Shown here: positions 2,061 through 44,756 of the stretch, one piece after another
Position numbering within the stretch: the stretch's first letter is position 1
Layout of the letters: every line of letters starts with the position of its first letter
DNA from: Escherichia phage BMA1
Strand: one strand, 5' to 3'
DNA length: 45,135 nt
Sequence record: PQ178821.1
Made by a program: the position numbers and the translations under genes
The notes under the pieces: model-generated
The model's database searches: none
Told to the model about the DNA's origin: nothing
Seen by the model: only the letters and a program-made list of their open reading frames with translations

Positions 2061-2077
2061 TTATGCAAGCGTGATAT

Positions 2078-2112
2078 AGTCCCAGTGAGATAAAACTTAC
2101 TGGGACTTTTTT
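2078..2112 (+). terminator. rho-independent terminator candidate
   Basis: AGTCCCAGT ... ACTGGGACT stem followed by TTTTTT. Confidence 0.55.
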
Positions 2113-3123: not shown

Positions 3124-3139
3124 TACGGGGTGACACGAT

Positions 3140-3307: not shown

Positions 3308-3314
3308 ACAATCA

Positions 3315-3339
3315 AGCCCGGTATTATCCGGGCTTTTTA
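3315..3339 (+). terminator. rho-independent terminator candidate
   Basis: AAGCCCGG ... CCGGGCTT stem plus TTTTT. Confidence 0.5.
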
Positions 3340-3399
3340 TTGCCCACCTCAATAAGTCCCATGATATATTGTCCCCGGACCCATAATCAGGAAGTAATT

Positions 3400-30125: not shown

Positions 30126-30147
30126 TGCAACCAACCTATTGGTTGCA
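30126..30147. promoter_or_regulatory. inverted repeat TGCAACCAA-ccta-TTGGTTGCA (operator-like palindrome)
   Basis: 9-bp arms, 4-bp spacer; overlaps stop of upstream gene and precedes start of downstream gene. Confidence 0.45.
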
Positions 30148-30606
30148 AGTGAATTTCGCAACGTTTATTGCGTAAATATTCGGGACCAAATCGCTACACG
30201 CCCGACGGATAGCTGCAATGTTCTTCGGGCAGTCTTCAATGATGACCAGTTCTGACACGTCCGCGTAGCAGACCATTTTGAACACTGCGCACGCCTTAAA
30301 CTCTGGCGGCGGGGTGTCATCCAGCATGTGGCGCATAAACAACCGGCCCGCCGGGAAGACCTCCAATTGCTCGGCGGTGGTGTCCCAACATTCTCGCTGC
30401 CGGTTTGTCAGATACGCTATCTCGAAGCCTTGCTCTTTGTACATGCGCAGCAGCGGCAGCATATCCATGTTCAGATCTTCGCGGACGTGCGCTTTGTGCC
30501 ACTTTGCCCAAAAGGTTGATTTCGTTTTTATCCCCGGCACCAGGTCGGCACGCGCATCGCTTGAACCGTTAATAACGCCATCCAAATCGCAAATCAGTAA
30601 TTTCAT
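30136..30606 (-). CDS. HAD-superfamily phosphatase-like protein (156 aa)
   Basis: N-terminal CDLDGV (HAD motif I-like), downstream YLTNR and ED segments; GAGAG RBS. Confidence 0.45.
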   Translation of the reverse strand: MKLLICDLDGVINGSSDARADLVPGIKTKSTFWAKWHKAHVREDLNMDMLPLLRMYKEQGFEIAYLTNRQRECWDTTAEQLEVFPAGRLFMRHMLDDTPPPEFKACAVFKMVCYADVSELVIIEDCPKNIAAIRRACSDLVPNIYAINVAKFTCNQ

Positions 30607-30827
30607 TTTAAACTCTCAATAAGGGTGTAACGGGCGCTTCGCGCAGTAAAGGAGTTGCACACGAAATGGCAACGCTGAGTCATGACAAGCCAACCGGTGA
30701 GGTCAAGGCCCAGGATGTATTCGGGGCGAGACGCGCGCACTACACGATTGCGTCGCGGATCAATACAGTAGTCTCTTTGCATTTGGTCTACGACCGCAGG
30801 GTCGCGGTCAACGATTAAGATATTCAA
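30603..30827 (-). CDS. small hypothetical protein (start uncertain, TTG in track)
   Basis: ORF bridging HAD-like and Dam-like genes; no clear RBS. Confidence 0.3.
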   Translation of the reverse strand: MNILIVDRDPAVVDQMQRDYCIDPRRNRVVRASRPEYILGLDLTGWLVMTQRCHFVCNSFTARSARYTLIESLK

Positions 30828-31293
30828 GGAGTTCTCCTTCGCTCATTATTTCAATTTGTGCGCTGCCAATGGGTGGCGCTTCGTCAAAGATTATCAATTG
30901 CTGGCACTTGTTATTGCTCGGACCGACTTCGCCGGTGACAGCATGTATAAATCGTATCCGCCAGTCCAGAAGAATTATCAGGTTTGCAGTCTTCCGGGCC
31001 AGCTTCGCCCACTTCGTCGACGTGTCCTGATTCAGTAGCATGACCGTCCGGCGTCCGTGCGCTGCGCACTTGACCCACGGCAGCGGGTCGGAATACGGCG
31101 GATTGCACCACTTCCACCCTTTCAACTCTGCCCAGTCCGCATCAAGCGCGCTATGTTCTGCCGTGAAGTAACGCGGTAGCAGATGATTGGCGTCGCTTGC
31201 CGCCATATCGTAACGGAATCGGAACTTACGGCGCAGCGGTTTAAATAAAGCTGGCGGCGTGCGCCAGCTATCTTTTTGCTCACTCTTCTGCAT
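30808..31293 (-). CDS. DNA N6-adenine methyltransferase, phage Dam-like (161 aa)
   Basis: WRTPP...LF N-terminus, AASDAN and NPPY (CNPPYSD) motifs. Confidence 0.8.
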   Translation of the reverse strand: MQKSEQKDSWRTPPALFKPLRRKFRFRYDMAASDANHLLPRYFTAEHSALDADWAELKGWKWCNPPYSDPLPWVKCAAHGRRTVMLLNQDTSTKWAKLARKTANLIILLDWRIRFIHAVTGEVGPSNNKCQQLIIFDEAPPIGSAQIEIMSEGELLEYLNR

Positions 31294-31744
31294 GATCTGG
31301 ATCTATCGCATACAGGGCAGTCTTTTCGCCTTTCTTCAGGATTCGCAGCAATCGCTGCGTCTCGGAGTCGCCTAAAGGGCGCGCGTCCGGGTAGAAGCTG
31401 CCGTTAGTGTTATTGCGCCACGCCACAAGCACCAGATCTTTCCGGTCGATCTTAGACTGGCGGCCTTTGGGGCGCACGTACTCCTCGGCCCGTTTGCAAT
31501 GCTCGCGCAGCGCATCGGCAGTTACGCGGTTTAGTGCAACGCTGGTTGTATATCCGGTGCGCTGCATAATCCCCATCAATTCGAAAAGCAGTTCGAAGCG
31601 CTCCTCTAACTCCTTGCGCATCTTTTCCTCTCCTTCATAGCTCGCCAGGTAGGTATCCGCCAGCGCGTTCGCCCGTTCGGCTTGCTCGCGGGCTTCGAGG
31701 CATTGCGCGGCCCAGTAATTTTTCTCTTCTTGTAAAATTTTCAT
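31280..31744 (-). CDS. hypothetical protein (154 aa)
   Basis: ORF with GGAGA RBS; charged helical sequence. Confidence 0.5.
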   Translation of the reverse strand: MKILQEEKNYWAAQCLEAREQAERANALADTYLASYEGEEKMRKELEERFELLFELMGIMQRTGYTTSVALNRVTADALREHCKRAEEYVRPKGRQSKIDRKDLVLVAWRNNTNGSFYPDARPLGDSETQRLLRILKKGEKTALYAIDPDHAEE

Positions 31745-31798
31745 CGTGTTGTCTCCAGGTATTAAAAAGGGCGTCCAAACCGGACACCCTTAAGATAA

Positions 31799-31825
31799 TG
31801 CAACCAATAGGATTATGCAACCAAT
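31799..31825 (-). promoter_or_regulatory. Two direct ATTGGTTGCA motifs (reverse orientation), 17 bp apart
   Basis: TGCAACCAAT at 31799..31808 and 31816..31825, upstream of - strand gene starting at 31744. Confidence 0.4.
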
Positions 31826-32149
31826 TTACGAATAAAAATTTGGGTCGCGCGCTACGTCTACCAGATACAGATTGCTGATCCGGTTGCCGTAGTGCCCTGG
31901 CGTGCGCTGGCGGCATACAACGGCGAAGCCTGGGGGGATTGTATTGCCCGTCTCAATAATCCACGCCACGCGTGCGCCAGACAGCGTCTTGCCGTTGTAT
32001 TCGATACGTGTTCCGCCATCGGCAGTGTTAAGGTTGCCAATCTTGCAGCCTGTGGACTTCAGGCGGATGACGCCGGTCTTACTGTCGTAGGAAAAAAGCT
32101 GATTGGTCATTGCCACTGAAAAGTCGATGGCGTCGAATGTAGTATTCAT
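31826..32149 (-). CDS. small protein with degenerate HNH/NUMOD-like pattern (107 aa)
   Basis: ARVAWIIETGN ... NRISNLYLV resembles the HNH_3 core but lacks the expected His; ATGA overlap with upstream gene. Confidence 0.35.
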   Translation of the reverse strand: MNTTFDAIDFSVAMTNQLFSYDSKTGVIRLKSTGCKIGNLNTADGGTRIEYNGKTLSGARVAWIIETGNTIPPGFAVVCRQRTPGHYGNRISNLYLVDVARDPNFYS

Positions 32150-32841
32150 TTTAAATTTTCCTCGTTAACCGCTATCGCGAAGCCGCGCGGGGTGAGTGAG
32201 CGGATTAATTTTGTACGAGCGGATTTACCACCGAGGCGACTATACTGTTTCGAGTACCCTTTTTCAACGAAAACAGGTTTCTTCTCGGGCATACGGAAGC
32301 CGTTGCCGGTCCATAAGCAGGTCAGCTTCGGATATGAATCGCGGGCGTTGATGTATTCAGGGAATAACGGATGTACGTCATCCTCTGGCAAATAACCGCC
32401 ATACTCATACGGGTTAAACGAGTGGTCCGGCTTACGCCATTGAGTGGCTAGCACGCTGCGCGGATTCTCAATCATATACGGCACTTCAAAGAAATCACCC
32501 AGGTAAGCGGCGATCTTCGCGGTGCGCACCGCCTTAAGCTGAAAGGCCGGGTCTTTAGCCCGCTTGCGCGGGAAAGCTGGCGCACCGCTCACTGCCAGAT
32601 CCGTACACGGAGGGAATGCGTAAATGATATCCGGCGTACCGAAATCGCCATTCATCGCGCGGTCCACGAAGTCCAGATCGATAAACTCATTGCGATACCG
32701 GATTCCGCGACCATAGATCCGGTAGTCAAGGTACGACCCGTGATCGGCTTCGGAGTAGTTAAAGCAATAACACTTATGCCCCATCTCGGCAGCACGCTCA
32801 ATCATCAAGCCGCTGCCGTCAAACAATGACCAGATTATCAT
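32146..32841 (-). CDS. DNA methyltransferase-like protein with C5-cytosine-MTase-type motifs (231 aa)
   Basis: SLFDGSG (motif I-like), FPPCTDLAVSG (PC motif-like), ENP; short for a full C5-MTase. Confidence 0.5.
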   Translation of the reverse strand: MIIWSLFDGSGLMIERAAEMGHKCYCFNYSEADHGSYLDYRIYGRGIRYRNEFIDLDFVDRAMNGDFGTPDIIYAFPPCTDLAVSGAPAFPRKRAKDPAFQLKAVRTAKIAAYLGDFFEVPYMIENPRSVLATQWRKPDHSFNPYEYGGYLPEDDVHPLFPEYINARDSYPKLTCLWTGNGFRMPEKKPVFVEKGYSKQYSRLGGKSARTKLIRSLTPRGFAIAVNEENLK

Positions 32842-34262
32842 TTGCGCGCCTTTTTAGCTTTCATGTATTCCATCAAGTCGTCCTGAATATCTCGCTTACT
32901 GTCGCGACGCTCGGCGACCAATTCGTCCAGTGTCCCGCGCGCCTGGATAATGTAGACGAATACCGGACGGGGGTGTCCTGCTTGCATCTGGCGAACCGGC
33001 CCGATACGTTCAACGATCTGCGAAAAGTGCTCAAAGTTCCAGGTATCGGAGAAGATTGCCAGGTGATGCCCGCCGTCCTGCAAGTTAAGGCCGTGGCCTG
33101 CCGATGCTGGGTGTGCAAACATGATGGGGATCTCGCCCCTGTTCCACGCTTCCATATCCTTATTGCCCTGCTTACCTTTACCCAACGCAACGCCGTGCGG
33201 AAATTTCTTCTTAAGACGTGCCAGGTCATGCTTATACTGATACGCAACGAGCAACGGCGCTCCGTTCAACTCCTCCACGATACTTTCCAGCGCGTCCAGC
33301 TTCGCGTCGTGAATCTTCACCCACTCGTCGGTCCGTTCGCCGTCTTCGTCCACCTTATACACGGCCCCGGATGCAAGCTGAAGGCACTTAATTGTCTTCG
33401 ACGCAGCGTTCGCCGCCTCCACTGTTCCGCTTTCCAGTTCGGCAAATAGCTCGCTTTCAAACTGGTCGTAAATCTTGCGGGCTTTCTTCGGCAGATCCAC
33501 AACAACCGGCGTATATATTGGCTTGTCACATCCGAAGTATTCAGCCGCGTCAACGGTGAGGGATACATCAGACAGGCGTTGTTGTATTTCTTTCTCGGAG
33601 TTCTTTAGCGGGGCGTGCTGCATAGTGAAGCTACCAGGCTTAACAGGCTTGCTAATGAACCAGCGATCGGTAAATGCCTTATAGCTACTGCCGAGGCGTT
33701 CGCCGCCGTCGACAAACCACGTCTGACCCCATAAGTCTTTCAAGCCATTTGGCGCGGGTGTGCCGGTCAGGTTAATCCAGCGCTTGACGTGCTTATGTGC
33801 GATCGCTGCCAGCGCACGGGCGCGCTTACTTCCCTGCTTACTCCTGTAGCCTTTCAGCTTAGTCGATTCATCGGCAACAACGACCGTAAAGGGCCACGCA
33901 TCGCCGTAATAGTCTACCAGCCACTCAACCACATCGTAGTTAACACAAACCACGTTAGCGTCGCTCTCCAGCGCGGCTATGCGGTCTTTTTCTGATCCTG
34001 TGCCGTCTACTACCAGCAAGGCGGGGAATCGCCATTTTTCTTGCTCCGGGGGCCACGTACCTGACGCAACGCGCAGCGGGGCCAGCACCAGTACGCGGTC
34101 CTCCAGGCTGGACAGGATACCAGTCTGGAACATTTTATTCAGCGCCCACATTGTCGCGCCGGTTTTACCGGATCCCATTGTCGCCCAGATATTACATCGC
34201 TTATGCTTGAGGATGAACGCGGTTATCAACTTCTGATATTCGCGACGTCGGAATCTTGCCAT
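32838..34262 (-). CDS. SNF2-family helicase (474 aa from ATG 34262)
   Basis: Walker A GSGKTG, DEST box, LTGTP motif, C-terminal helicase motifs. Confidence 0.8.
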   Translation of the reverse strand: MARFRRREYQKLITAFILKHKRCNIWATMGSGKTGATMWALNKMFQTGILSSLEDRVLVLAPLRVASGTWPPEQEKWRFPALLVVDGTGSEKDRIAALESDANVVCVNYDVVEWLVDYYGDAWPFTVVVADESTKLKGYRSKQGSKRARALAAIAHKHVKRWINLTGTPAPNGLKDLWGQTWFVDGGERLGSSYKAFTDRWFISKPVKPGSFTMQHAPLKNSEKEIQQRLSDVSLTVDAAEYFGCDKPIYTPVVVDLPKKARKIYDQFESELFAELESGTVEAANAASKTIKCLQLASGAVYKVDEDGERTDEWVKIHDAKLDALESIVEELNGAPLLVAYQYKHDLARLKKKFPHGVALGKGKQGNKDMEAWNRGEIPIMFAHPASAGHGLNLQDGGHHLAIFSDTWNFEHFSQIVERIGPVRQMQAGHPRPVFVYIIQARGTLDELVAERRDSKRDIQDDLMEYMKAKKARK

Positions 34263-34266
34263 ATCT

Positions 34267-34485
34267 TTATTCCGCCTTTTTCCAGACTTCTGTCTCACTG
34301 TTCCAGTTCCTTTTTGTGGCGTCGTAGTTGGTGGCGTGTCCGATGTGCACACCGGTAGCCCGGAAGCTCTTAAACTTCTGCCAGCACACCGTCAACGGCA
34401 GCGGGTAACTCATGCCAGCAATAAACCACACGCGATCGCCCGGTTTACATTCGCCCAGCTTGGTGAGCCGGTAATGTTCTTTCAT
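34267..34485 (-). CDS. hypothetical protein (72 aa)
   Basis: GGGAG RBS; preceded on the - strand by a GC hairpin with T-run. Confidence 0.45.
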   Translation of the reverse strand: MKEHYRLTKLGECKPGDRVWFIAGMSYPLPLTVCWQKFKSFRATGVHIGHATNYDATKRNWNSETEVWKKAE

Positions 34486-34496
34486 CGTCATGTCTC

Positions 34497-34521
34497 CCAA
34501 AAATGGCGGGACAAGCCCGCC
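34497..34521 (-). terminator. hairpin plus T-run on - strand (terminator/attenuator)
   Basis: GGCGGG cttgt CCCGCC followed by TTTTT on the - strand. Confidence 0.45.
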
Positions 34522-34535
34522 GTATTTATTATTTA

Positions 34536-34709
34536 TTATTTTTGTTCCGCACGGTAGCGGCGCTGCCGTTCGCGCTCTTTCTTATTGCGGCACGATTTGC
34601 ACTCGGCCCGATACCCGTCGGGGCTACGCGCCGTCTTACCGGTGTACTTGTGGAACTGGGATAGCGGTTTAACGCAACCGCAATTACTGCAGCGTTTCTC
34701 TTCAATCAT
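34536..34709 (-). CDS. small zinc-ribbon-like protein (57 aa)
   Basis: CSNCGC ... CKSCRN Cys pairs; GAGGA RBS. Confidence 0.45.
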   Translation of the reverse strand: MIEEKRCSNCGCVKPLSQFHKYTGKTARSPDGYRAECKSCRNKKERERQRRYRAEQK

Positions 34710-34768
34710 TTCTAAAATCCTCGTTAGTGCTAACCTGCTCACTATACTGTTAAGCGACCAATTCAGCA

Positions 34769-35338
34769 NACAATAAATCNCNGTCGGCTATGTTGTCGAT
34801 GACGGCCGTAATATTCAACAAGCAACTCAACCACATCGTAGTTAACACAAAACACGTTAGCGTCGCTCTCCAGCGCGGCTATGCTGTCATTTTCTGATCC
34901 TGTTCCGACTACAACCACCAAGGCGGGCACTCGCCATTATTCTTCCTCCGGGGGCNAACGGCAGCGGGTAACTCATGCCAGCAATAAACCACACGCGATC
35001 GCCCGGTTTACATTCGCCCAGCTTGGTGAGCCGGTAATGTTCTTTCATCGTCATGTCTCCCAAAAATGGCGGGACAAGCCCGCCGTATTTATTATTTATT
35101 ATTTTTGTTCCGCACGGTAGCGGCGCTGCCGTTCGCGCTCTTTCTTATTGCGGCACGATTTGCACTCGGCCCGATACCCNGTCGGGGCTACGCGCCGTCT
35201 TACCGGTGTACTTGTGGAACTGGGATAGCGGTTTAACGCAACCGCAATTACTGCAGCGTTTCTCTTCAATCATTTCTAAAATCCTCGTTAGTGCTAACCT
35301 GCTCACTATACTGTTAAGCGACCAATTCAGCAACCAAT
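34769..35338. repeat. low-quality chimeric duplicate of 33.9-34.0 kb and 34.39-34.77 kb, probable assembly artifact
   Basis: Contains ambiguous bases at 34769, 34780, 34782, 34956, 35180; near-identical copies of the 34267 and 34536 genes with scattered mismatches. Confidence 0.6.
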
Positions 35339-35592
35339 AAATCACAGTCGGCTATGTTGTCGATGACGCGAACGTCAGCACCGCGGCGGGCCATTCGCTC
35401 ATGTTCTCGCACCTGGTGCGGCTTCGGTTTTCCGCCGGGGCGCTTCACTTCGACGAACACTATTTTGCCGTTGATGATGATAATCAGATCGGGCGCACCC
35501 GCGCGCCCCTCCCATGCCACTTTACGGCAGAATCCGCCTACCTCTTTCACCCGTCGCATCAGGTGGCTTTGAATCCGGCCTTCGGGTGTCAT
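35314..35592 (-). CDS. VRR-NUC domain nuclease (92 aa)
   Basis: GAPDLIII ... VFVEVKRPGGKP...Q pattern typical of VRR-NUC. Confidence 0.7.
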   Translation of the reverse strand: MTPEGRIQSHLMRRVKEVGGFCRKVAWEGRAGAPDLIIIINGKIVFVEVKRPGGKPKPHQVREHERMARRGADVRVIDNIADCDLLVAELVA

Positions 35593-35780
35593 TTTGTTTG
35601 CAACTCCACGTTACGCAGCCGAAGGTCCACCGGTATATCCGATCGACCAGTTAGCGCCAGCGCCAGGTTTTCAGGCGTGACAAGTGCCGTTATGGTCTTG
35701 CCGCGTTCCAGTCTAATGACAATTCGAATCTCGTCATTGTCCGTCGCGCCAGCTCGCATTATGCTCATTTCTGCTTTCAT
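35589..35780 (-). CDS. small hypothetical protein (63 aa)
   Basis: AGGAAA RBS; immediately downstream of polymerase gene. Confidence 0.4.
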   Translation of the reverse strand: MKAEMSIMRAGATDNDEIRIVIRLERGKTITALVTPENLALALTGRSDIPVDLRLRNVELQTK

Positions 35781-35784
35781 AATC

Positions 35785-38076
35785 TTATTTCCTGTACCTG
35801 TACATGATGTCGCCTTCGGCGGCAAGCGGGAAGCCTTTCGCCCAAACAGGCAGGTCGCACATCAGCGCGCACAATTCCTCGGTAGTGTAGTCGTCAGTAT
35901 CCGGAACTTCGGTGATCAGTTCATCGTGTACGGACAGTACGATCTCATAGCCCGCAGCTTCAACGCCTGGCATGGACCATGCGAGAATATCGCGACACAG
36001 CGCCTGCACGATGTTTTCCGTCAGTTTGCCGCCGTAGGTATACTGGAAGCCCCACTGGCGCGTCGTCTGATTCTCGCCCTGGTATTTGATGCGGGTGCTG
36101 GTGCGCTTCTTGCCGGTGTCTTCGTCGATCTCGGTCGTGACAGACAGCGCGATGCCTGGGTAGCTCATGATGCGCCCTGACGGCAACTCAATTTTAAGCC
36201 ACCACCCCGCCGCGTTCGGGTCGTCGCGCTCATCGTCGAAGGTCGGGTCATGCTTCGCCTTCGTTCGAACAATTTTGATCGCTTTCCTGCCATCCGGGCG
36301 AACGTTCGCGCCGGCCCAGTACGCTTTGCCCGGATTGCGGATCGCGCAGAGCACCGCGTCCTCCAGTTCGGCCCAAAATGCTACCGTCATCGGGTGAGAC
36401 TCACGCCACATACGTTTGATCGCGTCACACGTCAACCACACGTTTTTTGGCAGTATGTAAGTTGGGCGCTCGTCTTTCTTGCCAGGCTTCGGCGGGCGCT
36501 TGGCTTCGTTAATGCGGGCATACTCATAACCACGTTTCGCCGCGGCCCAAATATGATCGGGGAATGTGCCCTTCATGACGTCCGCCATCGCATACAGGTC
36601 GAGGCCCAGGTTTTTAGCAAACTGCAGGAACGCTGCAACACCGCCACCATAGCCCAACCCCAATTCGCACGCCTTACCAATCTGGCGCAAGTCTTTGCGG
36701 TTGGCTTTGATGTATTCCGGGTCGAGGCCAAACATCTTACCGGCAGTCTCACAATAGATATCACGACCGGCCTTAAACACCATTAGCGCGGTTTTCTCGC
36801 CAGCGATCCAGGCAAGCCCGCGACCTTCCACGTTAGAATAGTCAGCTACAACAAACTTCTTGCCCTTAGCCGGAATAATGCACCCGCGAACGGTCGAGGC
36901 CGTTAACTTCGATATGTCATACGCCCAGTGTGCAGTCCCGCGTAACAGGGAGTTGATGCCGTTGGTGAGCATGTGCGACCGCACCCAATAAGAAACGTCG
37001 CTCTCGCCATCACGGCGCTTAATCTTCCCTTCGTGGTCGTCGCTATACTCGCCGCGTGCCAGGTTTTGCGGCTGGAATCCCTTACCGGCCCAGCGTAGCG
37101 TGCGCTTTGCCCCACCATACTGAAGACAACCACGGCGGCGACCATCGGCAGACAGCCCATTTACGAGCGGATTGTACTTAGTCGATGCCGTTGATGATGC
37201 CCCGAGGCGCATCTCGATAAGCACTTTGCCCTCGTCGGGGAAGTCTGGATCTTCAAGAAGGTCGTTAAGTGTGGATTTCTGCGCGTTGTGGATTGTGAAC
37301 GCAGGCGCGAGGTCGCGCAGCGCTGGTAGGAAGTCATTGCCGGTCAGCTTACCGCCGAAGCGCTCCCAGGCTTCTTCCTTCAATTCTTCCTTATGCGCCT
37401 GCACCGCTTTGATCGCGGCGTTCGCCAGGTCAACGTCCACATAGAAGCCGCGGTCGTTGATCAACTGGTCAATAAGCAGGATTTCGTCTTCCTTCGGCGT
37501 GTTTCCCCAGTCCGGTATGCGCCAATAGACTTCCCTCATAGCGATGATATCCAACGCGGCATAGCGCAGGAATTTAGCCCACTCCTCGGGGTGCGTCTCG
37601 CGCGTGTAGCGGCGGATTTTGTAGGTCTTAGGGGTTGGCTTACAGAATCGTTTGATCAGCGCCTTGCCCGCCTTATCCTTCGCGTGCTCTGCGTCAACGC
37701 CCAACACCTGGCACTGCATATCGAGGCCACCCGGCAGCGCGTGTCGAAAGGCCATAATCATGGTGTCTTCGATCTGGCACACTGGCAGGTCAATGCCCCA
37801 CTTCTCGCGAATGACCAGGCGGTCAAACAGTAGGCCGTTAGCCATCACTATTTTTGCTTTCTTGCGGGATACCCTGCGGAGCGCCTTGCGCAGTTCACGC
37901 GGCATTGTTGGGGACTCGGTGCAATCCCATGTCTGCACGCGGCCCTCGTCGATGGCGTAGGTGCAAATCATAATCTCGGTGGTTGGGTGCTCTGCGTAGG
38001 CATATGCGCCCACTTTCTTCAGATCCACCCCGCTAAATGTCTCGGTATCGAGAAAAAGTCGTTCGAAGTCTTTCAT
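35785..38076 (-). CDS. DNA polymerase, family A, with 3'-5' exonuclease domain (763 aa)
   Basis: LDTET exo motif; DYSNVEGR (motif A), RQIGKACELGLGYGGG (motif B), VHDE (motif C). Confidence 0.9.
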   Translation of the reverse strand: MKDFERLFLDTETFSGVDLKKVGAYAYAEHPTTEIMICTYAIDEGRVQTWDCTESPTMPRELRKALRRVSRKKAKIVMANGLLFDRLVIREKWGIDLPVCQIEDTMIMAFRHALPGGLDMQCQVLGVDAEHAKDKAGKALIKRFCKPTPKTYKIRRYTRETHPEEWAKFLRYAALDIIAMREVYWRIPDWGNTPKEDEILLIDQLINDRGFYVDVDLANAAIKAVQAHKEELKEEAWERFGGKLTGNDFLPALRDLAPAFTIHNAQKSTLNDLLEDPDFPDEGKVLIEMRLGASSTASTKYNPLVNGLSADGRRRGCLQYGGAKRTLRWAGKGFQPQNLARGEYSDDHEGKIKRRDGESDVSYWVRSHMLTNGINSLLRGTAHWAYDISKLTASTVRGCIIPAKGKKFVVADYSNVEGRGLAWIAGEKTALMVFKAGRDIYCETAGKMFGLDPEYIKANRKDLRQIGKACELGLGYGGGVAAFLQFAKNLGLDLYAMADVMKGTFPDHIWAAAKRGYEYARINEAKRPPKPGKKDERPTYILPKNVWLTCDAIKRMWRESHPMTVAFWAELEDAVLCAIRNPGKAYWAGANVRPDGRKAIKIVRTKAKHDPTFDDERDDPNAAGWWLKIELPSGRIMSYPGIALSVTTEIDEDTGKKRTSTRIKYQGENQTTRQWGFQYTYGGKLTENIVQALCRDILAWSMPGVEAAGYEIVLSVHDELITEVPDTDDYTTEELCALMCDLPVWAKGFPLAAEGDIMYRYRK

Positions 38077-38243
38077 TGCTTAATCCTCACTACGGCGTCA
38101 GCGCTGCCGATCGTAGAGAAGATACCGTCGGAAAGGGTTATCTCCTCGCCGTTGTTACGAACCTCGGCAACGGTGAAATACTCGCCCAGCAGTTTAGACC
38201 ATACTCGCATTCCGACTTTTACTTCGCTGGCTTTAATGCGCAT
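38073..38243 (-). CDS. small hypothetical protein (56 aa)
   Basis: Below ORF-track cutoff; ATGA overlap with polymerase start. Confidence 0.3.
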   Translation of the reverse strand: MRIKASEVKVGMRVWSKLLGEYFTVAEVRNNGEEITLSDGIFSTIGSADAVVRIKQ

Positions 38244-38257
38244 TTTTCATTGTCCTA

Positions 38258-38282
38258 TTAAAAAGCCCGCATTAAGCGGGCT
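38258..38282 (-). terminator. hairpin plus T-run on - strand
   Basis: AGCCCGC ttaat GCGGGCT followed by TTTT on - strand, between SSB-like gene and polymerase. Confidence 0.5.
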
Positions 38283-38301
38283 TGAATAGTGGGCTTTGCC
38301 C

Positions 38302-39081
38302 TTAACGGCGGCGACGTTTACGTGGCGCTTCGTCTTCGTCGTCGTCCTCATCTTCGTCATCGCGTGGCTTACGACGTTTGCGAGGTTTTTCATCTTCCTC
38401 ATCGTCGTCATCGCGGCGCTTGGACTTTTTGGACTTACGCGGCTTGTCATCTTCATCGTCATCGTCACGACGTTTTGACTTCTTAGCCTTGCGCGGGCTT
38501 TCATCTTCATCATCGTCGCCCAGGTCTTCGTCGGAACATGAAGACCCGCCACCGCCGAAGGCTTCGCCGTCTTCCCTGAAGCGCAAACCCAGCAAGCCAG
38601 CGCCGAGTCCCTTGCCGTTGGTGTTGTTCCACGCCCAAATATCCAGGGACACGTTGCAATAGCAACCGGAATAGATTTCCTGGCCTTCGATCTCGTCGCC
38701 TTCTACGGTCAGACCTTGTTCCGTCTGCTTCTCGCCCAGTGACGTTTGGATGTTAGGCTGTTTGAACGATTTAGCGTTGATGTACAACATGCCTTCAAAT
38801 TCTTCGGTTACTTCGTCACGCTCGTCACCGTCGCGAACTGCGCATTCCTTAGAATCCTGGGCGTAGTGGCGGTCCATCCACTTATCGGCGTTCTTCTCGG
38901 ATTTCAGCTTGTCGGTGAGCACTGCGCGCGCTGCCGCTTCCACTTTGTCCACCTGCGGGTCTTCTTTATCAAGAAGAATCACGGCACGGTATGCCGGTTT
39001 TTGTCCATCCTGTTTAGGGGTATCACGTTCCCAAATTTTCAGGAAACATACGCGCACATTTTTCAGGTTGACTTTAGCCAT
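38302..39081 (-). CDS. putative ssDNA-binding protein (DUF2815-like) with charged repetitive C-terminus (259 aa)
   Basis: MAKVNLKNVRV N-terminus; C-terminal tandem acidic/basic repeats; GAGGAA RBS. Confidence 0.5.
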   Translation of the reverse strand: MAKVNLKNVRVCFLKIWERDTPKQDGQKPAYRAVILLDKEDPQVDKVEAAARAVLTDKLKSEKNADKWMDRHYAQDSKECAVRDGDERDEVTEEFEGMLYINAKSFKQPNIQTSLGEKQTEQGLTVEGDEIEGQEIYSGCYCNVSLDIWAWNNTNGKGLGAGLLGLRFREDGEAFGGGGSSCSDEDLGDDDEDESPRKAKKSKRRDDDDEDDKPRKSKKSKRRDDDDEEDEKPRKRRKPRDDEDEDDDEDEAPRKRRRR

Positions 39082-39171
39082 TTTCCAATTCCTCATTTTC
39101 ACATGTATCGGGGTTATTGGAAGCCACCCCGTTCGGCTTGGTTGCTAATCTACTTGGTTGCGCTTAAGCGG

Positions 39172-39414
39172 TCAAGCATTTTCATTAAAAAGATTTCTGG
39201 TCACGTAGTTGGTGGCGTTCTCGATCCAGCTTAACGGCGGGCGGTCGATGTTCTTTTTCACCCAATCGACGGCAACTTCGCGATAGCCGTCATCCAGCCA
39301 GCGGGTCGGATGGCGAATCATCCACGCCACCATTAACACGCCTTGCACGCAATGCAGGGTAAATCCCAGCGCACCGAGCAAAAACATCAATAAGATTGCA
39401 AATACTTTATTCAT
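39172..39414 (-). CDS. hypothetical membrane protein (80 aa)
   Basis: N-terminal hydrophobic helix. Confidence 0.4.
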   Translation of the reverse strand: MNKVFAILLMFLLGALGFTLHCVQGVLMVAWMIRHPTRWLDDGYREVAVDWVKKNIDRPPLSWIENATNYVTRNLFNENA

Positions 39415-40837
39415 TGCTTAAGTCCTCGTCAGTAGCTTCCGACCACGCAGGACGCGGGTCGTCGATCGGTGCTAACACCGGTTTTGCGGGTGCGCGTGTG
39501 ATTTTATCACACAGCTTAGCCCACACTTTCGGTTTTTCATCCTTCAGTACCTTCTCGGCATCCGTAGGGCTGAGCAATGTTTCTTTGTACATCACATCAC
39601 GCTTGATCCGGGCCTTCGTGAAGATTTCAATCACTTCGCTCTCGTCCGCCCACTTGCGGATCCCTTCCTTACCGGCAACCATCTTGAGGCCCAGCGATTC
39701 GCCGTCGCCCGCCATTACCGCCTTAAATACCGCGGACTCGATCGCTTTGATGTGCTGGCGCATTGCGTCCAGGCCTTCATAAGCCTTGCGCAATTCCGCA
39801 GCGCTCATAGCACCGGGGGCCGCTTCTTTCCTACCACGCTTCGCACGTCGTGCCGCCTTCCGGGCTTCGCGGGCCATATTGCGGTCATGGTTGGCGCATT
39901 CTTCCTCTGTTGCAATACTCACGTCGTCGCCCAGGTCTTCGTCGGTTGCCGTTGGTGGTGTCATCGTATCGATTGCGGCCTTCGCCCTGGCGCTACACTG
40001 ATCCGCAAATCGACACCACTGGCACGCATCAACGCTGGGGCGGAAGTCGGCACGGGTAAGCCCCTTCTTGCCTCGGGAATACGCCTCCAGTGCGGAAATA
40101 GCGCGCTTGGATGCAAACTTCGCGAATATCTCCAGGGCTTCTACCGTAATATCCCACTCCGACGCCCCGCCGCAATACGGCTGGAAGATAACCAGGCGCA
40201 CGGTCGTAATGTCGTACATAGTTTTCAGCTTGCGCAGCAGGCCGAGCGCATACAGCATGAGTTGTTTGTTTTCTTTCGCCTCGACCTTATGCCGCCCCGT
40301 CTTCAGGTCGCCAACAATCAGCATGTACGTGCCGTCGGTCTTCTTCATGACCATGACCATATCGGCAGTACCGAACGTCTTAACCCGGTTGCCGTCGATC
40401 TCGAATCCTGAATGAAGGACGCGGGTAAGATCGGCGCGCATCTCAAGCTGAACAAACTCCGCCACCTCGAGGAGTGGTCGCCAGTGGTCGATGTACGCGT
40501 CGCACTGTTTCACCATGTCGTCATTGACCAGTACGCCGCCTTTCGGCGCTTTCGGATGTGCCTTCACTGGCCCCTTGCCTTCGTTCTCGACGTAGCACCC
40601 TTTATACGTCTTTGCGGTTATCAGCTTTTCACCGGCGATAATGCGGTTTAGCACCACTTCAGATACGGTGTGCATACTCGTACCGTTAATCGCGGCTTGC
40701 CCGGATTCGTTCGGGATATCTTTTTCCACCACCAGGGCAGCAGGGCAACCCATCCACTTTTTAGCACCGGATGGACCGAGTAATGAATGTTCCGTATTAC
40801 TACCGGATTGTGTTTTGCGCTTCGGTTTAATCGCCAT
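39407..40837 (-). CDS. PD-(D/E)XK nuclease, DUF2800 / Cas4-like with Cys cluster (476 aa)
   Basis: HSLLGPSGAKKWMGCP N-terminus, GDLKTG...EAK nuclease-like motif, C-terminal CQWCRFADQC cluster. Confidence 0.6.
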   Translation of the reverse strand: MAIKPKRKTQSGSNTEHSLLGPSGAKKWMGCPAALVVEKDIPNESGQAAINGTSMHTVSEVVLNRIIAGEKLITAKTYKGCYVENEGKGPVKAHPKAPKGGVLVNDDMVKQCDAYIDHWRPLLEVAEFVQLEMRADLTRVLHSGFEIDGNRVKTFGTADMVMVMKKTDGTYMLIVGDLKTGRHKVEAKENKQLMLYALGLLRKLKTMYDITTVRLVIFQPYCGGASEWDITVEALEIFAKFASKRAISALEAYSRGKKGLTRADFRPSVDACQWCRFADQCSARAKAAIDTMTPPTATDEDLGDDVSIATEEECANHDRNMAREARKAARRAKRGRKEAAPGAMSAAELRKAYEGLDAMRQHIKAIESAVFKAVMAGDGESLGLKMVAGKEGIRKWADESEVIEIFTKARIKRDVMYKETLLSPTDAEKVLKDEKPKVWAKLCDKITRAPAKPVLAPIDDPRPAWSEATDEDLSNE

Positions 40838-41025
40838 TATTCCACCCTTGAAAATTGAGCAATGTAATAATCGTGTTCAACATTGGCCCGCTTCGCGGCT
40901 TCGTTCATGGTCGATGCCAGTTCTCGGGCTTGCGTCCCGCAGCAATTCCAGTTTTGATTCATAACAATTTCTGGTTGCTCGTCGCCGGTGATACGGCAAC
41001 GAAATAAAACAAAGAATATAGCCAT
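40837..41025 (-). CDS. small hypothetical protein (62 aa)
   Basis: GGGAG RBS. Confidence 0.35.
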   Translation of the reverse strand: MAIFFVLFRCRITGDEQPEIVMNQNWNCCGTQARELASTMNEAAKRANVEHDYYIAQFSRVE

Positions 41026-41277
41026 TTATTTTGTCTCCCAGCGGTCGATTGTTTTTNCTTCGGATGCAACAGCGAAGCGAACAAATTCCAGATTGGAATC
41101 CGCCCAAATATAAAAGTCGGGATTAATGAAGGTGGTGCGCTTAATTTGCGCGGGAGTATTGCGGCGTTTATCTATTACGGCAACGCGTGACTGAAAGTTG
41201 CCGATGCGTTCGAATAGCCAATAATAAGGGCGCTGGTCGCGGGAGTCCACCGCCTCGATTAGCGTGAAACGTGCCAT
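41026..41277 (-). CDS. hypothetical protein (83 aa; contains ambiguous base at 41057)
   Basis: ORF in - strand operon. Confidence 0.4.
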   Translation of the reverse strand: MARFTLIEAVDSRDQRPYYWLFERIGNFQSRVAVIDKRRNTPAQIKRTTFINPDFYIWADSNLEFVRFAVASEXKTIDRWETK

Positions 41278-41325
41278 TGTCTCGTCCTCTAAAAAGAGGC
41301 CCGCAGATTAGCGGGCCGGAATATA

Positions 41326-41748
41326 TTAATCTTCCAGTTCGAAATAGGTTTCTACGATTTCTTTTAACTCTGTGTGGAAGTCTTCTACGTCGTCATCTTC
41401 CAGCTTGGCGATTGATTTGATCTCGAACGATTCCAGCAGGTCGTCGAATTCGTCGTTCGCGTCATCATCATCACCGCCTGCAATAATAGCGGCATACTGT
41501 TTTATTTCGTCGCGCATCTCCGCCAGCGGATCGGCATCTTTCGTACCTTTGCCTTTCGCGGGTGCTTTTTTAGTTTTCGCCGGGGCTTCGGCTTCATCGT
41601 CGTCATCTTCGACAACTTCTTTTTTGGCCTTAGACGGCTTCTTGTCTTCCTGCTTACCAACGGCAGCGCCAACGGTTTCATAATGTTTAGCGATGGTTTC
41701 CAGTGCTACTACGCCGCGAGTGATCAGGTTTACGATTTGCTCAAACAT
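41326..41748 (-). CDS. highly acidic small protein (140 aa from ATG 41748)
   Basis: GGAGA RBS; Asp/Glu clusters (DDDDEAEA, GGDDDDANDEFDD, EDDDVED) separated by Lys-rich linker; first gene of - strand operon. Confidence 0.5.
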   Translation of the reverse strand: MFEQIVNLITRGVVALETIAKHYETVGAAVGKQEDKKPSKAKKEVVEDDDDEAEAPAKTKKAPAKGKGTKDADPLAEMRDEIKQYAAIIAGGDDDDANDEFDDLLESFEIKSIAKLEDDDVEDFHTELKEIVETYFELED

Positions 41749-41952
41749 GGTATATCTCCGATTGGTTAAGTTTAGGTGTCGGCAGTTAACTTCGTCGGTG
41801 GCCTTAACATATTGCCCGGTTGCGCGTTCTCCCGTTCGGGTAGTGGACCGGGTTATATAATCACGGTTGGGAATCCTGACACTTCGATCCGGCCCCTGCG
41901 TTGCCCCTCTCCAGTTTGCGTCCTGCATCCTGTCGACGGGGTNGAATAATAG

Positions 41953-41962
41953 ATTGGTTGCA
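41953..41962 (+). promoter_or_regulatory. ATTGGTTGCA motif in divergent promoter region
   Basis: Between divergent operons (41749..42151). Confidence 0.35.
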
Positions 41963-42091
41963 GGATGGGTGTCAACAACTAATTTCAAAAAAAAAGCGCC
42001 GAGGCAAAATGCACCGGCGCTAACCAATAAGAGACAATGAGACGGGAATTATTATTACACGCGTGCGCGCCCGTTTCAATATCCAAAGGAT

Positions 42092-42120
42092 TTGACACCG
42101 TGCAGTTTTGGGTGTAGTTT
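42092..42120 (+). promoter_or_regulatory. sigma70-like promoter candidate (TTGACA-17-TAGTTT)
   Basis: Consensus -35 hexamer, 17-bp spacer, weak -10; 31 nt before the HTH gene start. Confidence 0.35.
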
Positions 42121-42151
42121 CGTTGGTCATTAACCAACTGGGGGCAGAACA

Positions 42152-42481
42152 ATGAATGTAAACGACGCAATCGAAATGTTAACTAAGACTGTTTGCAGTG
42201 AGACTAGCCGGTCCTGGGCGTATACCGATGCCGTGGGTGCGGTGCTATTTGAAATCGAACGTCTGCGACTTACCGAAAAAGAATTGCGCGCGAAGCTGGA
42301 ATTACTCAACGGTACGGCAGCCAGCAAGCTGCAAAAACACAATGAAGAAATGGAAGAATACAAAAAACAGGTTATCCGTCTACGTGAGGAAGGTAAATCC
42401 TGGGCGATGATTGCCGAGTTGACCGGAATTAATCAGAGCACAGTGCGCTCCTGGGTACGCAATAATAAAACTTCTAAGTAA
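42152..42481 (+). CDS. HTH DNA-binding protein (109 aa)
   Basis: C-terminal SWAMIAELTGINQSTVRSWV helix-turn-helix-like segment; first gene of rightward operon. Confidence 0.6.
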   Translation: MNVNDAIEMLTKTVCSETSRSWAYTDAVGAVLFEIERLRLTEKELRAKLELLNGTAASKLQKHNEEMEEYKKQVIRLREEGKSWAMIAELTGINQSTVRSWVRNNKTSK

Positions 42482-42491
42482 GGCCACGGCA

Positions 42492-44756
42492 ATGAGCTTA
42501 ATTAAATTCGCTGTAACAAGACCCGCTAAAAAAGGCGAAAAAGCCAGGGCGGAAAACTTCCAGATGACGACCGATGAATTTTTCGAATTTATCAAAGATG
42601 CGAAAGAGATATCGTCGGTGCATATCAACAAGACGGAAGATAAAGCCGAGTATGCGCGCCGCAAGCGTAAGGCCGATGGCATCGTAGCGTATACCTGTGA
42701 CGGCTTACGCCGCAAGACCAGTGCGGTGGACCGCTCGATCCTGTTCTTCGATATTGACCGTACCGACACCCGCACCCTACGCCGCTGCCGTAAGGCTTTC
42801 ATCGACGCGGGGCTGGAGCACGTATTTCACACCACAACCGGCGACCGCCACCCGCTGAAAGGCGGCACGCGTTGCGCTCGATTCCTGGTACTCACGGACA
42901 AGCCTGTACCGGCTGAAGACCTGGGCCGTGTCCAGTATGCGCTATTACACCAACTTGGTCTGTCAGATGTGGACTTCGACGATTGCACGAAAGACACAAA
43001 CCGCCTGATGTACCTGCCACACCAGCAGTCTGTTATTAAGTGCCACTACGGCAAGCGTGCCCGCGTCCGTCGTCTGCTTCGCCTGGCGGATAAGTTGGGC
43101 GTGGAGAAGGAGGAAGTACGCCGCGAGCTTACCCAGGGCGACGACGCAGTGGCAGACGGCATTCTGGACTGGTGCTTCCAGGCAGGATTCGAGGAGTTAT
43201 CTTCCGGTCGTGGTTATGAAGTGCCGTGCCCTAACGAACATCTGCACAGCGGCGAAGGGTCCACCGCTATCATGGTTAAGGATGGCGAGATCCGTTTCAA
43301 GTGTATGCACACCGGCAACGAGTGTTGCTCGGAACTGAACAGACACCAGCACCTGGCGCTACGTCTTATCGGGATCCCGGACCACCTGAACGTCGAACCG
43401 CACAATATGTCACGTAAGCAAATCGCCGCCATCCTTCCAGGACTGGACGACGAGGAAGTGGAATCGTGCTATGCGCATATCGTTGATGCGGTCGGAGACG
43501 GCGACGAGTACGGCGGATGTACGGACGCAGACCTGGACAACGAGCCGGTTGCCCTGTTCAGTAAGCACGACCCGATCATCGAGGGGTTGATTAACTTTAA
43601 ATCGACCTGGTATATGGCGGGCGAGTCGAACATCGGTAAATCGTTCTACGTGCTGGGGCAAATGGGCGCTGTTGCCGCCGGTATTCCGTTCGGTGGTGCG
43701 AAGGTTGTCCAGTCGCATTGCTTCTATTTCGATGCGGAAGGTGGCGAAGCCTCCAACCAGCGTAAGGAAGCATTGCAGATTAAATATGAGCACGACCTGG
43801 ACAAGCTGCACATTATCGACCTGCAATCACGCGGCTGGGATATCACCAGCAAATCCGGCTTGCGTGAAGTTATCAGCTTCATCAACCGCACCGCTAACGG
43901 CGAACCGGTTGGCCTGGTGGCGTTCGACTCACTCAACCAGACTGTTGCGTTGCGGTCCGCCGATGCTAAACCGTTCGACGAGAACAACGCCAGCGATATG
44001 GGCGAAGTGGTCAAGGCGCTGAAGGCCATTGCGGAAAACACAGGCGGCAGTGCGGGAGTCATCCACCACCCGGCTAAAGGTGCAAACGGCAGCAGAACCC
44101 CCCGCGGATCCGGCGCGCTGCATGGTGCTGTTGATTCTGCTTTCTTCCTGGAGCAACCAGACGACAACCAGCCCGGACAATTGAACCTGTATCATGAGAA
44201 GTCTCGTAACGGCATCAAGCAAGCGCCGCGCGGCTTCGTCCTGCTCAAGTGCAAGGTTAAGGTGGATCTCCGCAAGTCCGAGGCGTTCGAATCACACCAG
44301 TCCACCAGCGCCGGGCCTGACTTCGGCGATGTGGTTGCCGGTTGGGACGTCAAGCCAATTGCCTCCACGCCACGCGACGAGACGCTTTACCTCGTACCGG
44401 TCGCCCTGGCACCGTTCGCCATCGAACAGGCGAAGGCGGCGGGCAAGACCGCAGTTAAGGAAGAGAACGCCGCAGGCCCGCGCAACGAAAAAGAGAAAGT
44501 GCTTTATGCAGCGCTGGAAAAACTGATGGAAGATAACCCGGACCATACCGGATTCAGTAAATCGGCAATTGTCCGCCAGGCGGGATTGGCAAAAGGTGGC
44601 ACATCGACGAAGGCAATAGACGATATGGTCGAGCGCGGCGTGCTTGGGTTTTACACAGACCCACACACCGGGGCCATCTATGGGTCGTCTAATATCGTCA
44701 TCAAAACGAATATACCCATCACGCTTTCGGCGACCGATGACGACCTGAAAGATTAA
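42492..44756 (+). CDS. primase-helicase fusion (754 aa)
   Basis: N-terminal FFDIDRTD primase-type acidic motif; central Walker A GESNIGKS; size similar to phage primase-helicases. Confidence 0.8.
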   Translation: MSLIKFAVTRPAKKGEKARAENFQMTTDEFFEFIKDAKEISSVHINKTEDKAEYARRKRKADGIVAYTCDGLRRKTSAVDRSILFFDIDRTDTRTLRRCRKAFIDAGLEHVFHTTTGDRHPLKGGTRCARFLVLTDKPVPAEDLGRVQYALLHQLGLSDVDFDDCTKDTNRLMYLPHQQSVIKCHYGKRARVRRLLRLADKLGVEKEEVRRELTQGDDAVADGILDWCFQAGFEELSSGRGYEVPCPNEHLHSGEGSTAIMVKDGEIRFKCMHTGNECCSELNRHQHLALRLIGIPDHLNVEPHNMSRKQIAAILPGLDDEEVESCYAHIVDAVGDGDEYGGCTDADLDNEPVALFSKHDPIIEGLINFKSTWYMAGESNIGKSFYVLGQMGAVAAGIPFGGAKVVQSHCFYFDAEGGEASNQRKEALQIKYEHDLDKLHIIDLQSRGWDITSKSGLREVISFINRTANGEPVGLVAFDSLNQTVALRSADAKPFDENNASDMGEVVKALKAIAENTGGSAGVIHHPAKGANGSRTPRGSGALHGAVDSAFFLEQPDDNQPGQLNLYHEKSRNGIKQAPRGFVLLKCKVKVDLRKSEAFESHQSTSAGPDFGDVVAGWDVKPIASTPRDETLYLVPVALAPFAIEQAKAAGKTAVKEENAAGPRNEKEKVLYAALEKLMEDNPDHTGFSKSAIVRQAGLAKGGTSTKAIDDMVERGVLGFYTDPHTGAIYGSSNIVIKTNIPITLSATDDDLKD

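Follow-up and report, generated by a model that had tools for sequence, protein, structure and literature searches.

A conserved DNA-methylation, helicase and nuclease gene block in the Dhillonvirus coliphage BMA1, with two predicted methyltransferases and a probable assembly artefact

The window analysed here is the entire 45,135-nt stretch of Escherichia phage BMA1 (record PQ178821.1), and all positions refer to it. By sequence, the source phage is a Dhillonvirus (HK578-like) coliphage. The span 30808-35592 holds a run of genes on the - strand (Table 1), for which an initial annotation had listed a Dam-like N6-adenine methyltransferase with an NPPY motif, a protein with C5-cytosine methyltransferase motifs I and IV, an HNH-like protein lacking its catalytic His, an SNF2-type helicase, a zinc ribbon and a VRR-NUC nuclease. 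Every one of these is present on that strand, at or near the place assigned to it, and has the character claimed, as detailed below. The list was nevertheless incomplete, two further genes in the span having been missed, those for the 154-residue protein and for the 74-residue protein downstream of the zinc ribbon. A homologue of Ksap1 overlaps the left edge.

Table 1. Features at and around the gene block, with positions in the window.
Feature	Position	Strand	Match or basis
HAD-type phosphatase gene	30136-30606		
Ksap1 homologue, 74 aa	30603..30827	-	phrog_10685 E 2.6e-45
Dam-like N6-adenine DNA methyltransferase (predicted), 161 aa	30808..31293	-	PF05869, phrog_111
154-aa protein, core gene of genus	31280..31744	-	155 phage records
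HNH_3-like protein, degenerate active site, 107 aa	31826..32149	-	phrog_99 E 2.3e-16
Short DNA C5-cytosine methyltransferase (predicted), 'Dcm-like', 231 aa	32146..32841	-	motifs I, IV, VI
SNF2-family helicase, 474 aa (probable start)	32838..34262	-	PF00176, phrog_62
74-aa protein	34267..34491	-	phrog_9291 E 2.3e-46; ORF to 34500 upstream
Terminator-like hairpin, GGCGGGC-TTGT-CCCGCC then ATTTTT	34505..34521	-	consensus match only
Stand-alone zinc ribbon (CxxC...CxxC), 57 aa	34536..34709	-	phrog_5558 E 6.1e-18
Chimeric duplication, ~564 bp (probable artefact)	~34769..35332	.	repeats and alignments
Stand-alone VRR-NUC nuclease, 92 aa	35314..35592	-	PF08774, phrog_93

Chance does not account for this arrangement, since 147 of the 157 phage records matched by a 5.2-kb query cover at least 80% of it. 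The same gene order is found in around 150 GenBank phages at DNA identities of 89–92%, the closest matching record having no more than ~92% identity to the BMA1 region, and each of the small genes is core to the genus. [quoted passage not shown] On these sequence comparisons the block is the standard Dhillonvirus DNA-methylation, helicase and nuclease set, already known from more than 150 sequenced coliphages, and sits within the leftward-read genes for DNA metabolism and replication that the genus conserves.

The Dam-like protein matches PF05869 (E 3.4e-36, with 124.9 bits where the cutoff is 28.1) and phrog_111 (E 2.6e-55), and its translation contains the (D/N)PPY motif as N64-P-P-Y67. Its score with the equivalog model TIGR01712, 86.8 bits, falls under the cutoff of 97.05. 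The enzyme probably acts at GATC, of which there are 165 sites in the window. The Ksap1 homologue lies between this gene and that of the phosphatase. Ksap1 itself is a 74-aa Dhillonvirus protein, encoded between methyltransferase and phosphatase genes, that triggers KpAvs2 and for which the escape mutations L47R and T50P are described (PMC11564622); the BMA1 homologue has L47 and T50. To the other side of the Dam-like gene, the 154-aa protein has counterparts in essentially only Dhillonvirus-type phages, where it is mostly annotated as hypothetical, and yields no Pfam match up to E 10 and no NCBIfam match up to E 0.01. We found nothing in support of the name 'DNA ligase' given to it in some records and in PHROG 10530; one record itself reads 'Possible DNA ligase but no evidence'.

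The SNF2-type helicase matches PF00176 (E 3.6e-11; 43.1 bits against a cutoff of 24.9) and phrog_62 (E 8.9e-157), with weak DEAD and Helicase_C matches, the latter lobe scoring 16.8 bits against 23.5. Walker A and DExx motifs are present in the translation as GSGKT and DEST. The open reading frame, 32838-34352, runs upstream to a GTG at 34352; translation probably begins at the ATG at 34262, for a product of 474 residues as in relatives (1425 nt annotated). The 74-aa protein that follows is annotated as hypothetical in relatives and its PHROG carries no function. Between its gene and that of the zinc ribbon sits the terminator-like hairpin, which is conserved in relatives. The zinc-ribbon frame extends over 34536-34742 and relatives annotate its 57-aa portion, a core gene found in 164 phage records. 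The protein also matches the N-terminal parts of the nuclease profiles phrog_1035, 2255 and 2633, and thus appears to resemble the zinc module found at the N terminus of phage EndoVII/HNH nucleases. The label 'Lar-like', implying restriction alleviation, stems only from PHROG 5558; a Pfam search gave no Lar match up to E 10.

The VRR-NUC protein scores 27 bits with PF08774 against a cutoff of 23.8, and matches phrog_93 (E 8.7e-31) as well as the structures 4QBN (E 1.4e-22) and 4QBO (E 9.5e-14) in the PDB. Its PD-(D/E)xK motif is intact, with D35, E48 and K50 aligning with their equivalents in both structures. The paper on those structures reportedly describes such proteins as dimeric Holliday-junction resolvases. 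What is known of the two families suggests that the SNF2 and VRR-NUC genes are best read as serving replication and recombination, not anti-restriction.

Three motifs characterise the 231-aa protein as a C5-cytosine methyltransferase. Motif I, the SAM-binding loop, is seen as F7-D-G9-S10-G11, at least 90% conserved among 30 homologues and aligning with SLFSGAGG of M.HaeIII. Motif IV, P77-P78-C79, is invariant in the same set and aligns with GGPPC of M.HaeIII and with C82 of the K42-type Dcm, making C79 the predicted catalytic nucleophile. The motif VI glutamate of C5-methyltransferases protonates N3; here E125-N126-P127 is again invariant, E125 corresponding to E128 of K42 Dcm. The AlphaFold model is confident and has the C5-methyltransferase catalytic-domain fold, its best structural matches being exclusively DNA C5-methyltransferases. 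Between 175 and 194 residues superimpose on the catalytic domain of M.HhaI/M.HaeIII and, as the protein is also ~100 aa shorter than these enzymes, the canonical large target-recognition domain is apparently missing. A stretch of ~60 aa (residues ~137-200), highly conserved in the homologue alignment, may constitute a minimal target-recognition region.

The short length underlay the proposal, made in the initial annotation, that this protein is truncated and serves as a non-canonical modifier or else as a decoy that binds DNA. A length of 225-250 aa is, however, normal for a phage family with invariant FxGSG, PPC and ENP that comprises 2896 clusters and 1515 phage records, and by sequence the BMA1 protein is a full-length member of this known short family. 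The decoy idea also lacks support, since the protein is 53% identical (E 3e-87) to the 236-aa protein of the Warwickvirus phage tonijn, whose residue numbering matches that of K42 Dcm and through which the link to the latter is drawn: C79, E125 and K172 of BMA1 align with C82, E128 and K175 of the tonijn protein. K42 Dcm makes 5-methylcytosine (5mC) on retron msDNA, as seen by LC-MS, and triggers retron Ec86, an effect abolished in the four-residue mutant C82A, E128A, K175A, K176A (bioRxiv 10.1101/2023.08.16.553469). By analogy, the BMA1 enzyme would use SAM and Cys79 to form 5mC, probably at CCWGG, the target assumed for the short family from the retron work. The window contains 160 CCWGG sites and shows no avoidance of them.

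The same annotation had viewed the cluster as a self-protection/anti-restriction and recombination-processing module. Part of this stands: both methyltransferases appear catalytically intact by motif, and the helicase and nuclease are of recombination and replication type. A dedicated anti-restriction module built around a truncated C5-methyltransferase, non-canonical or a decoy, nonetheless seems improbable to us. Two methylase genes do lie close together, and the 231-aa protein gives no match to PF00145 in a Pfam search even at E up to 10, let alone above the gathering threshold, and none in NCBIfam. The family is, however, linked to PF00145 through 19 of the 30 homologues (E up to 1; best 1.3e-06), and the conserved motifs, family-wide length and 5mC formation by the related K42 enzyme all run counter to the decoy idea. 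'Dedicated' is likewise too strong a term, because the block belongs to the replication set of the genus, beside PolA, SSB and the DUF2800 nuclease. In the BASEL study Dhillonvirus phages were comparatively sensitive to restriction-modification (RM), and in the related Drexlerviridae methyltransferase genes showed no simple link to restriction resistance (PMC8594841). Given the former result any anti-restriction benefit is narrow at most, the two methyltransferases plausibly protecting phage DNA from enzymes that cut at their own target sites.

The 107-aa HNH_3-like protein falls short of the PF13392 threshold (13.1 bits, the cutoff being 24.8), with only profile positions 5-21 matched and the alignment ending ahead of the catalytic His. 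That residue of the beta-beta-alpha-metal site is absent, and the protein has its own Cys79 at the expected position, which on our reading is that of the His in canonical 'DHIDG'. Homologues carry the motif VVCRQRTPGHYGNR without variation and, more specifically, VVC79RQR is invariant in those from Dhillonvirus. The AlphaFold model (pLDDT 50.4) is too poor for its fold to be read. The gene occurs in 161 phage records, is core to the genus, always lies beside the methyltransferase gene and overlaps the stop codon of the latter by 4 nt with its start.

These last facts would suit a catalytically dead protein that binds DNA as a partner of the minimal methyltransferase or of the SNF2 helicase, or that regulates one of them, as would the situation in Eiauvirus. 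In Edwardsiella phage eiAU-183, the SNF2 helicase gene is followed by one for an HNH-like protein without His (gp31, a homologue of 40% identity with RCIDGG at the same place), then by a C5-methyltransferase gene and a PF05869 Dam gene, an order slightly unlike that of BMA1. Were such a partnership real, the protein could supply the target recognition that the short methyltransferase may lack, or could guide the placing or timing of methylation or of helicase activity, and would represent a domesticated homing-endonuclease remnant. We nevertheless regard it as quite unlikely. Drexlerviridae have the short methyltransferase without an annotated adjacent HNH-like gene, and plasmid expression of K42 Dcm by itself sufficed for msDNA methylation and retron triggering (bioRxiv 10.1101/2023.08.16.553469). 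The Eiauvirus C5-methyltransferase, a canonical 330-aa PF00145 enzyme unlike the short one of BMA1, needs no helper, and the structural model is unusable as support.

The remaining feature, the ~564-bp piece, has two parts: an error-laden 151-nt copy of SNF2 positions 33903-34053 at 34805-34955, and a second copy of 34394-34804 at 34957-35368. Repeated in it are the zinc-ribbon gene, part of the 74-aa frame and the SNF2 fragment. It contains five of the eight N's in the window, and an extra N puts the second zinc-ribbon copy out of frame. It is absent from all relatives compared, neither junction being spanned by any of 439 matching records. Since all 15 mismatches between the fragment and the resident SNF2 gene are transversions (natural divergence in that gene gives transition to transversion ratios of 44:26 and 34:19), we consider the piece probably an assembly artefact rather than biology, a call made from sequence statistics and comparison with relatives. 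Duplications do occasionally occur in phage genomes and the given sequence does contain the piece, yet the clustered N's, the want of a single transition, the frameshift and the absence from every relative make it hardly credible that a tandem duplication or a scar of recombination arose naturally here, bringing an SNF2 fragment and another zinc-ribbon gene.

We thus hold with good confidence to the reading as a whole, namely a conserved DNA-metabolism block with methylases predicted to be active and, within it, a ~564-bp assembly artefact. From the gene content, family and fold assignments, conserved catalytic motifs and genus-wide synteny described above, we infer the enzymatic activities, sequence specificities, SNF2 and VRR-NUC roles and anti-restriction benefit that make up the following scheme. 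Read leftward on the - strand, the block comes after the DUF2800 nuclease, the Enc34-type SSB and the family-A DNA polymerase. The VRR-NUC enzyme probably acts on branched intermediates of replication and recombination, resolving or trimming them, and the SNF2 translocase probably remodels forks or branched DNA jointly with this nuclease. The minimal C5-methyltransferase of the 'phage Dcm' family would then form 5mC and the Dam-family enzyme would methylate N6-adenine, together probably keeping the fast-replicating phage DNA methylated, while the HNH_3-like protein would be catalytically dead. Such methylation would give narrow protection against restriction enzymes with the same target sites. 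It may also be a liability, retron-type defences sensing methylation of this kind.

Comparison with known systems bears out how ordinary the block is within its genus. HK578, SSL-2009a, PaulFeyerabend/Bas15 (BASEL) and SECphi4/18 share its order and content, the common sequence of genes being phosphatase, Ksap1, Dam, 154-aa, HNH-like, Dcm-like, helicase, 74-aa, zinc ribbon, VRR-NUC, 63-aa and PolA; BMA1 differs from these relatives in the extra chimeric duplication with its N's. The stand-alone nucleases of 4QBN and 4QBO are of the same size as the BMA1 protein (92-93 aa), align with it end to end and conserve PD...ExK. At the level of sequence the 231-aa protein is distant from M.HhaI and M.HaeIII (PF00145) and from the DNMT3A/3B catalytic domains, with 13-15% identity. 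Its nearest characterised counterpart is the 'Dcm' of K42/KarlJaspers-type phages (236 aa, the trigger of Ec86/Eco1), which belongs to the same short family and has the same catalytic residues, but comes from Drexlerviridae rather than Dhillonvirus and has a second substrate-binding Lys (K176) where BMA1 has Leu173.

The gene block belongs to a family of closely related regions in sequenced coliphages. This was assessed through a megablast comparison of positions 30600-35800 with a database of 50,697 phage records. Matches were obtained in 157 records, nearly all of them Dhillonvirus (HK578-like) phages of Escherichia or Shigella, with at least 80% of the query covered in 147 and a top identity of around 92%. 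In two annotated relatives, PaulFeyerabend/Bas15 and UDS3lw, the minus-strand gene order is the same as here: phosphatase, 74-aa protein, Dam, 154-aa protein, 'homing/HNH endonuclease' and 'Dcm-like C5 methyltransferase', then helicase, a second, distinct 74-aa protein, proteins of 57, 92 and 63 aa, and DNA polymerase I. The shared order and the number of matching records show the cluster to be real, non-random and many times annotated before, and every gene named in the initial annotation is present. The block is an ordinary, widely sequenced and already known Dhillonvirus DNA-metabolism module, of little significance past getting its annotation right.

Coordinates of features in and around the gene block
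Feature	Position	Strand	Remarks
Ksap1 homologue, 74-aa ORF	30603-30827	-	Between Dam and phosphatase genes; overlaps left edge of the span first annotated (30808-35592)
Dam	30808-31293	-	PF05869, 124.9 bits (cutoff 28.1); NPPY at residues 64-67
154-aa core gene	31280-31744	-	Restricted to Dhillonvirus-type records; 'DNA ligase' label
HNH-like, 107 aa	31826-32149	-	
Short C5-methyltransferase, 231 aa	32146-32841	-	
Helicase-adjacent 74-aa gene	34267-34491		
Terminator-like hairpin	34505-34521	-	
Probable duplication artefact	34769-35332		
VRR-NUC nuclease	35314-35592	-	
PolA, family-A DNA polymerase	35785-38076	-	Upstream of block
Enc34-type SSB (ssDNA-binding protein)	38302-39102	-	Upstream of block
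DUF2800/PD-(D/E)XK nuclease	39407-40837	-	Upstream of block
AAA_25 protein	42492-44756	+	Divergently read

No Rfam family or tRNA was detected anywhere in the window, and a promoter scan remained at background level (12 found, 10.5 expected). The zinc-ribbon and helicase-adjacent 74-aa genes are separated by a conserved, terminator-like GC-rich hairpin with a T-run, directly followed by a GGGAGA ribosome-binding site. Given this hairpin, the block may not be a single transcription unit.

The 231-aa protein had been taken for a truncated C5-methyltransferase, a view that its relatives contradict. The protein itself has no match in Pfam or NCBIfam, nor among PDB sequences using phmmer. It does match phrog_757 (E 1.7e-81), and its family is very large: at E ≤ 0.001 there are 2896 clusters, at 50% identity 783 representative ones, and members occur in 1515 phage records that include Dhillonvirus, Drexlerviridae, Salmonella phages of ~40 kb, coliphages of ~136-169 kb and many Klebsiella siphoviruses. 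Nearly all of the best 120 of the 2896 clusters have lengths of 225-250 aa. An alignment of 30 homologues shows conservation, up to invariance, at F7, G9, S10, G11, P77-P78-C79 and E125-N126-P127, and also along a long C-terminal segment, LGGKS..TK.IRSLTPRG. The AlphaFold model, built on the homologue alignment, is confident (pLDDT 91.5, pTM 0.90), and with Foldseek it matches the catalytic domains of DNMT3A/3B (E about 1e-6) and the prophage DNA methyltransferase 3g7u. PF00145 is reached at E up to 1 by 19 of the 30 homologues (best 1.3e-06), and the family profile, searched against the PDB, places motifs I, II and IV correctly on M.HaeIII, in a weak alignment (E 0.8); an hhalign comparison of the profile with the canonical C5-methyltransferase of Eiauvirus was uninformative (probability 0.7%). 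Motifs, model, fold matches and family length together indicate that 231 residues is the full length, and the protein is, as judged from sequence and predicted structure, a complete member of a minimal C5-methyltransferase family. Shortened forms of 148-195 aa occur in some metagenome contigs (P0005, P0011, P0022), and the phage PS2 record has the gene split into two pieces (46% coverage); these may be sequencing errors or variants that naturally lost function.

The deposited sequence probably carries a 564-bp assembly error. Repeat analysis of the window shows that 34394-34804 recurs at 34957-35368, and that 34805-34955 copies 33903-34053, within the SNF2 gene, at 90% identity. Five of the eight N's in the window lie within 34769-35180 (at 34769, 34780, 34782, 34956 and 35180), one such insertion frameshifting the second zinc-ribbon copy. 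The extra ~564 bp is absent from all relatives compared, and neither junction is spanned by any of the 439 records matching the 151-nt SNF2-like fragment. Natural SNF2 divergence from two relatives is transition-rich (44:26 and 34:19). Derivation of the fragment from a second, co-assembled phage may be dismissed, since even its best-matching phage record reaches 90.7% identity, which does not exceed its match to the resident SNF2 gene of the window, and all 15 mismatches to that gene are transversions. The chimeric duplication is thus probably an assembly artefact on the sequence evidence, most likely caused by incorporation of a poor-quality chimeric read, and the false extra ORFs it creates at 34763-35345 should be disregarded. 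The remaining single N's, at 13103, 41057 and 41943, suggest draft-quality sequence.

The SNF2-type helicase and VRR-NUC nuclease were both correctly recognised at the outset. The former matches PF00176 and phrog_62 (E 8.9e-157), its start in relatives being the ATG at 34262 (474 aa) rather than the upstream GTG; the latter passes the PF08774 threshold and aligns end-to-end with the stand-alone structures 4QBN (E 1.4e-22) and 4QBO, keeping D35, E48 and K50. The zinc ribbon, 57 aa in relatives, is a core gene of the genus. Its 'Lar-like' label comes from PHROG 5558 only, the Pfam search finding no Lar similarity, and its residues also match zinc modules at the N-terminus of EndoVII/HNH nuclease PHROGs. 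In eiAU, a relative of Edwardsiella phage eiAU-183, the location of the homologue corresponds to the stretch immediately ahead of the EndoVII-type HNH gene in eiAU-183. With PolA, SSB and nuclease genes as neighbours in a replication region spanning 35785-44756, SNF2 and VRR-NUC sit among replication/recombination genes. From knowledge of their families, SNF2 would most likely remodel forks or branches and VRR-NUC would most likely cleave junctions or flaps.

The N6-adenine methyltransferase is likewise as first described, with a PF05869 match well above cutoff and NPPY in the translation; an NCBIfam search of the small proteins of the block added nothing. The genome contains 165 GATC and 160 CCWGG sites, the latter not avoided, so that both predicted methylases would have many targets. 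In the BASEL collection, Dhillonvirus phages are comparatively RM-sensitive, and methyltransferase genes and resistance show no simple link among related Drexlerviridae (PMC8594841). An anti-restriction benefit of the methylases is plausible but narrow. Of what was first proposed, the gene content stands as observed and the interpretation finds partial support: SNF2 and VRR-NUC are by family recombination- and replication-type enzymes, and a dedicated anti-restriction module is too strong a reading. The 154-aa protein is called a DNA ligase in PHROG 10530 and several GenBank/RefSeq records. This assignment has no support from Pfam or NCBIfam, the protein is far too small, and by sequence the name is probably an annotation error passed on from record to record.

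The 107-aa protein is related to the HNH endonucleases of PHROG 99 (E 2.3e-16), although it scores only 13.1 bits on HNH_3 in an alignment ending right before the catalytic His. At the expected catalytic site its homologues have an invariant VVC79RQRTPGHYGNR, and the sole distant homologue, Eiauvirus gp31 (40% identity), has RCIDGG. Cys thus replaces the expected His, in agreement with the degenerate HNH protein first reported. A large protein search returned only five close clusters, precluding a deep alignment, and the AlphaFold model, from a shallow five-sequence alignment, has a pLDDT of 50; phmmer found no match among PDB sequences.

The 74-aa ORF beside Dam agrees with what is published on Ksap1, a Dhillonvirus protein that activates KpAvs2, the Avs2 defence of Klebsiella pneumoniae. 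Ksap1 has 74 aa, is flanked by methyltransferase and phosphatase genes and has escape mutations at residues L47 and T50 (PMC11564622); the ORF here has both of these residues. The UDS3lw record does not call Ksap1 and instead has a 50-aa ORF antisense to its position (1567-1719, +), probably a gene-calling error.

Retron defences are known to be triggered by phage Dam and Dcm, and the trigger of retron Ec86 is a 711-bp gene of Drexlerviridae phage K42 (bioRxiv 10.1101/2023.08.16.553469). Escapers of K42 have lost or silenced this gene, which when expressed alone is toxic only with the retron present; 5mC on msDNA was seen by LC-MS with K42 Dcm, and its C82A/E128A/K175A/K176A mutant is inactive (bioRxiv 10.1101/2023.08.16.553469). 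Later papers repeat the K42 Dcm/Ec86 result. The 231-aa protein shares 53% identity (E 3e-87) with the 236-aa, 711-bp orthologue of Warwickvirus tonijn, its C79, E125 and K172 aligning with C82, E128 and K175, and by sequence it is of the same, already characterised family as K42-type Dcm. This kinship, to a protein that makes 5mC and with catalytic residues kept, leaves unsupported the suggestion of a decoy or inactive enzyme, and the appropriate annotation is that of a short but intact phage Dcm, not a pseudogene. Its product could trigger retron Eco1/Ec86 and act as an anti-restriction factor of narrow scope. With the Ksap1 homologue, one small block thus holds two proteins of kinds known to be sensed by host defences; in two retron papers no link was found to Dhillonvirus SNF2 or VRR-NUC genes.

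Two known systems bear comparison. Where K42 Dcm has K176, the 231-aa protein has Leu173, and the CCWGG specificity of K42 Dcm is an assumption taken from E. coli Dcm. In Eiauvirus eiAU-183 (852-4382) the order is SNF2 helicase, the HNH-like gp31 that lacks the His, a C5-methyltransferase of canonical type (330 aa) and a PF05869 Dam, an arrangement that hints at a conserved association of HNH-like, SNF2 and methyltransferase genes. A required partnership of HNH-like protein and methyltransferase seems unlikely, however, because K42 Dcm works alone.
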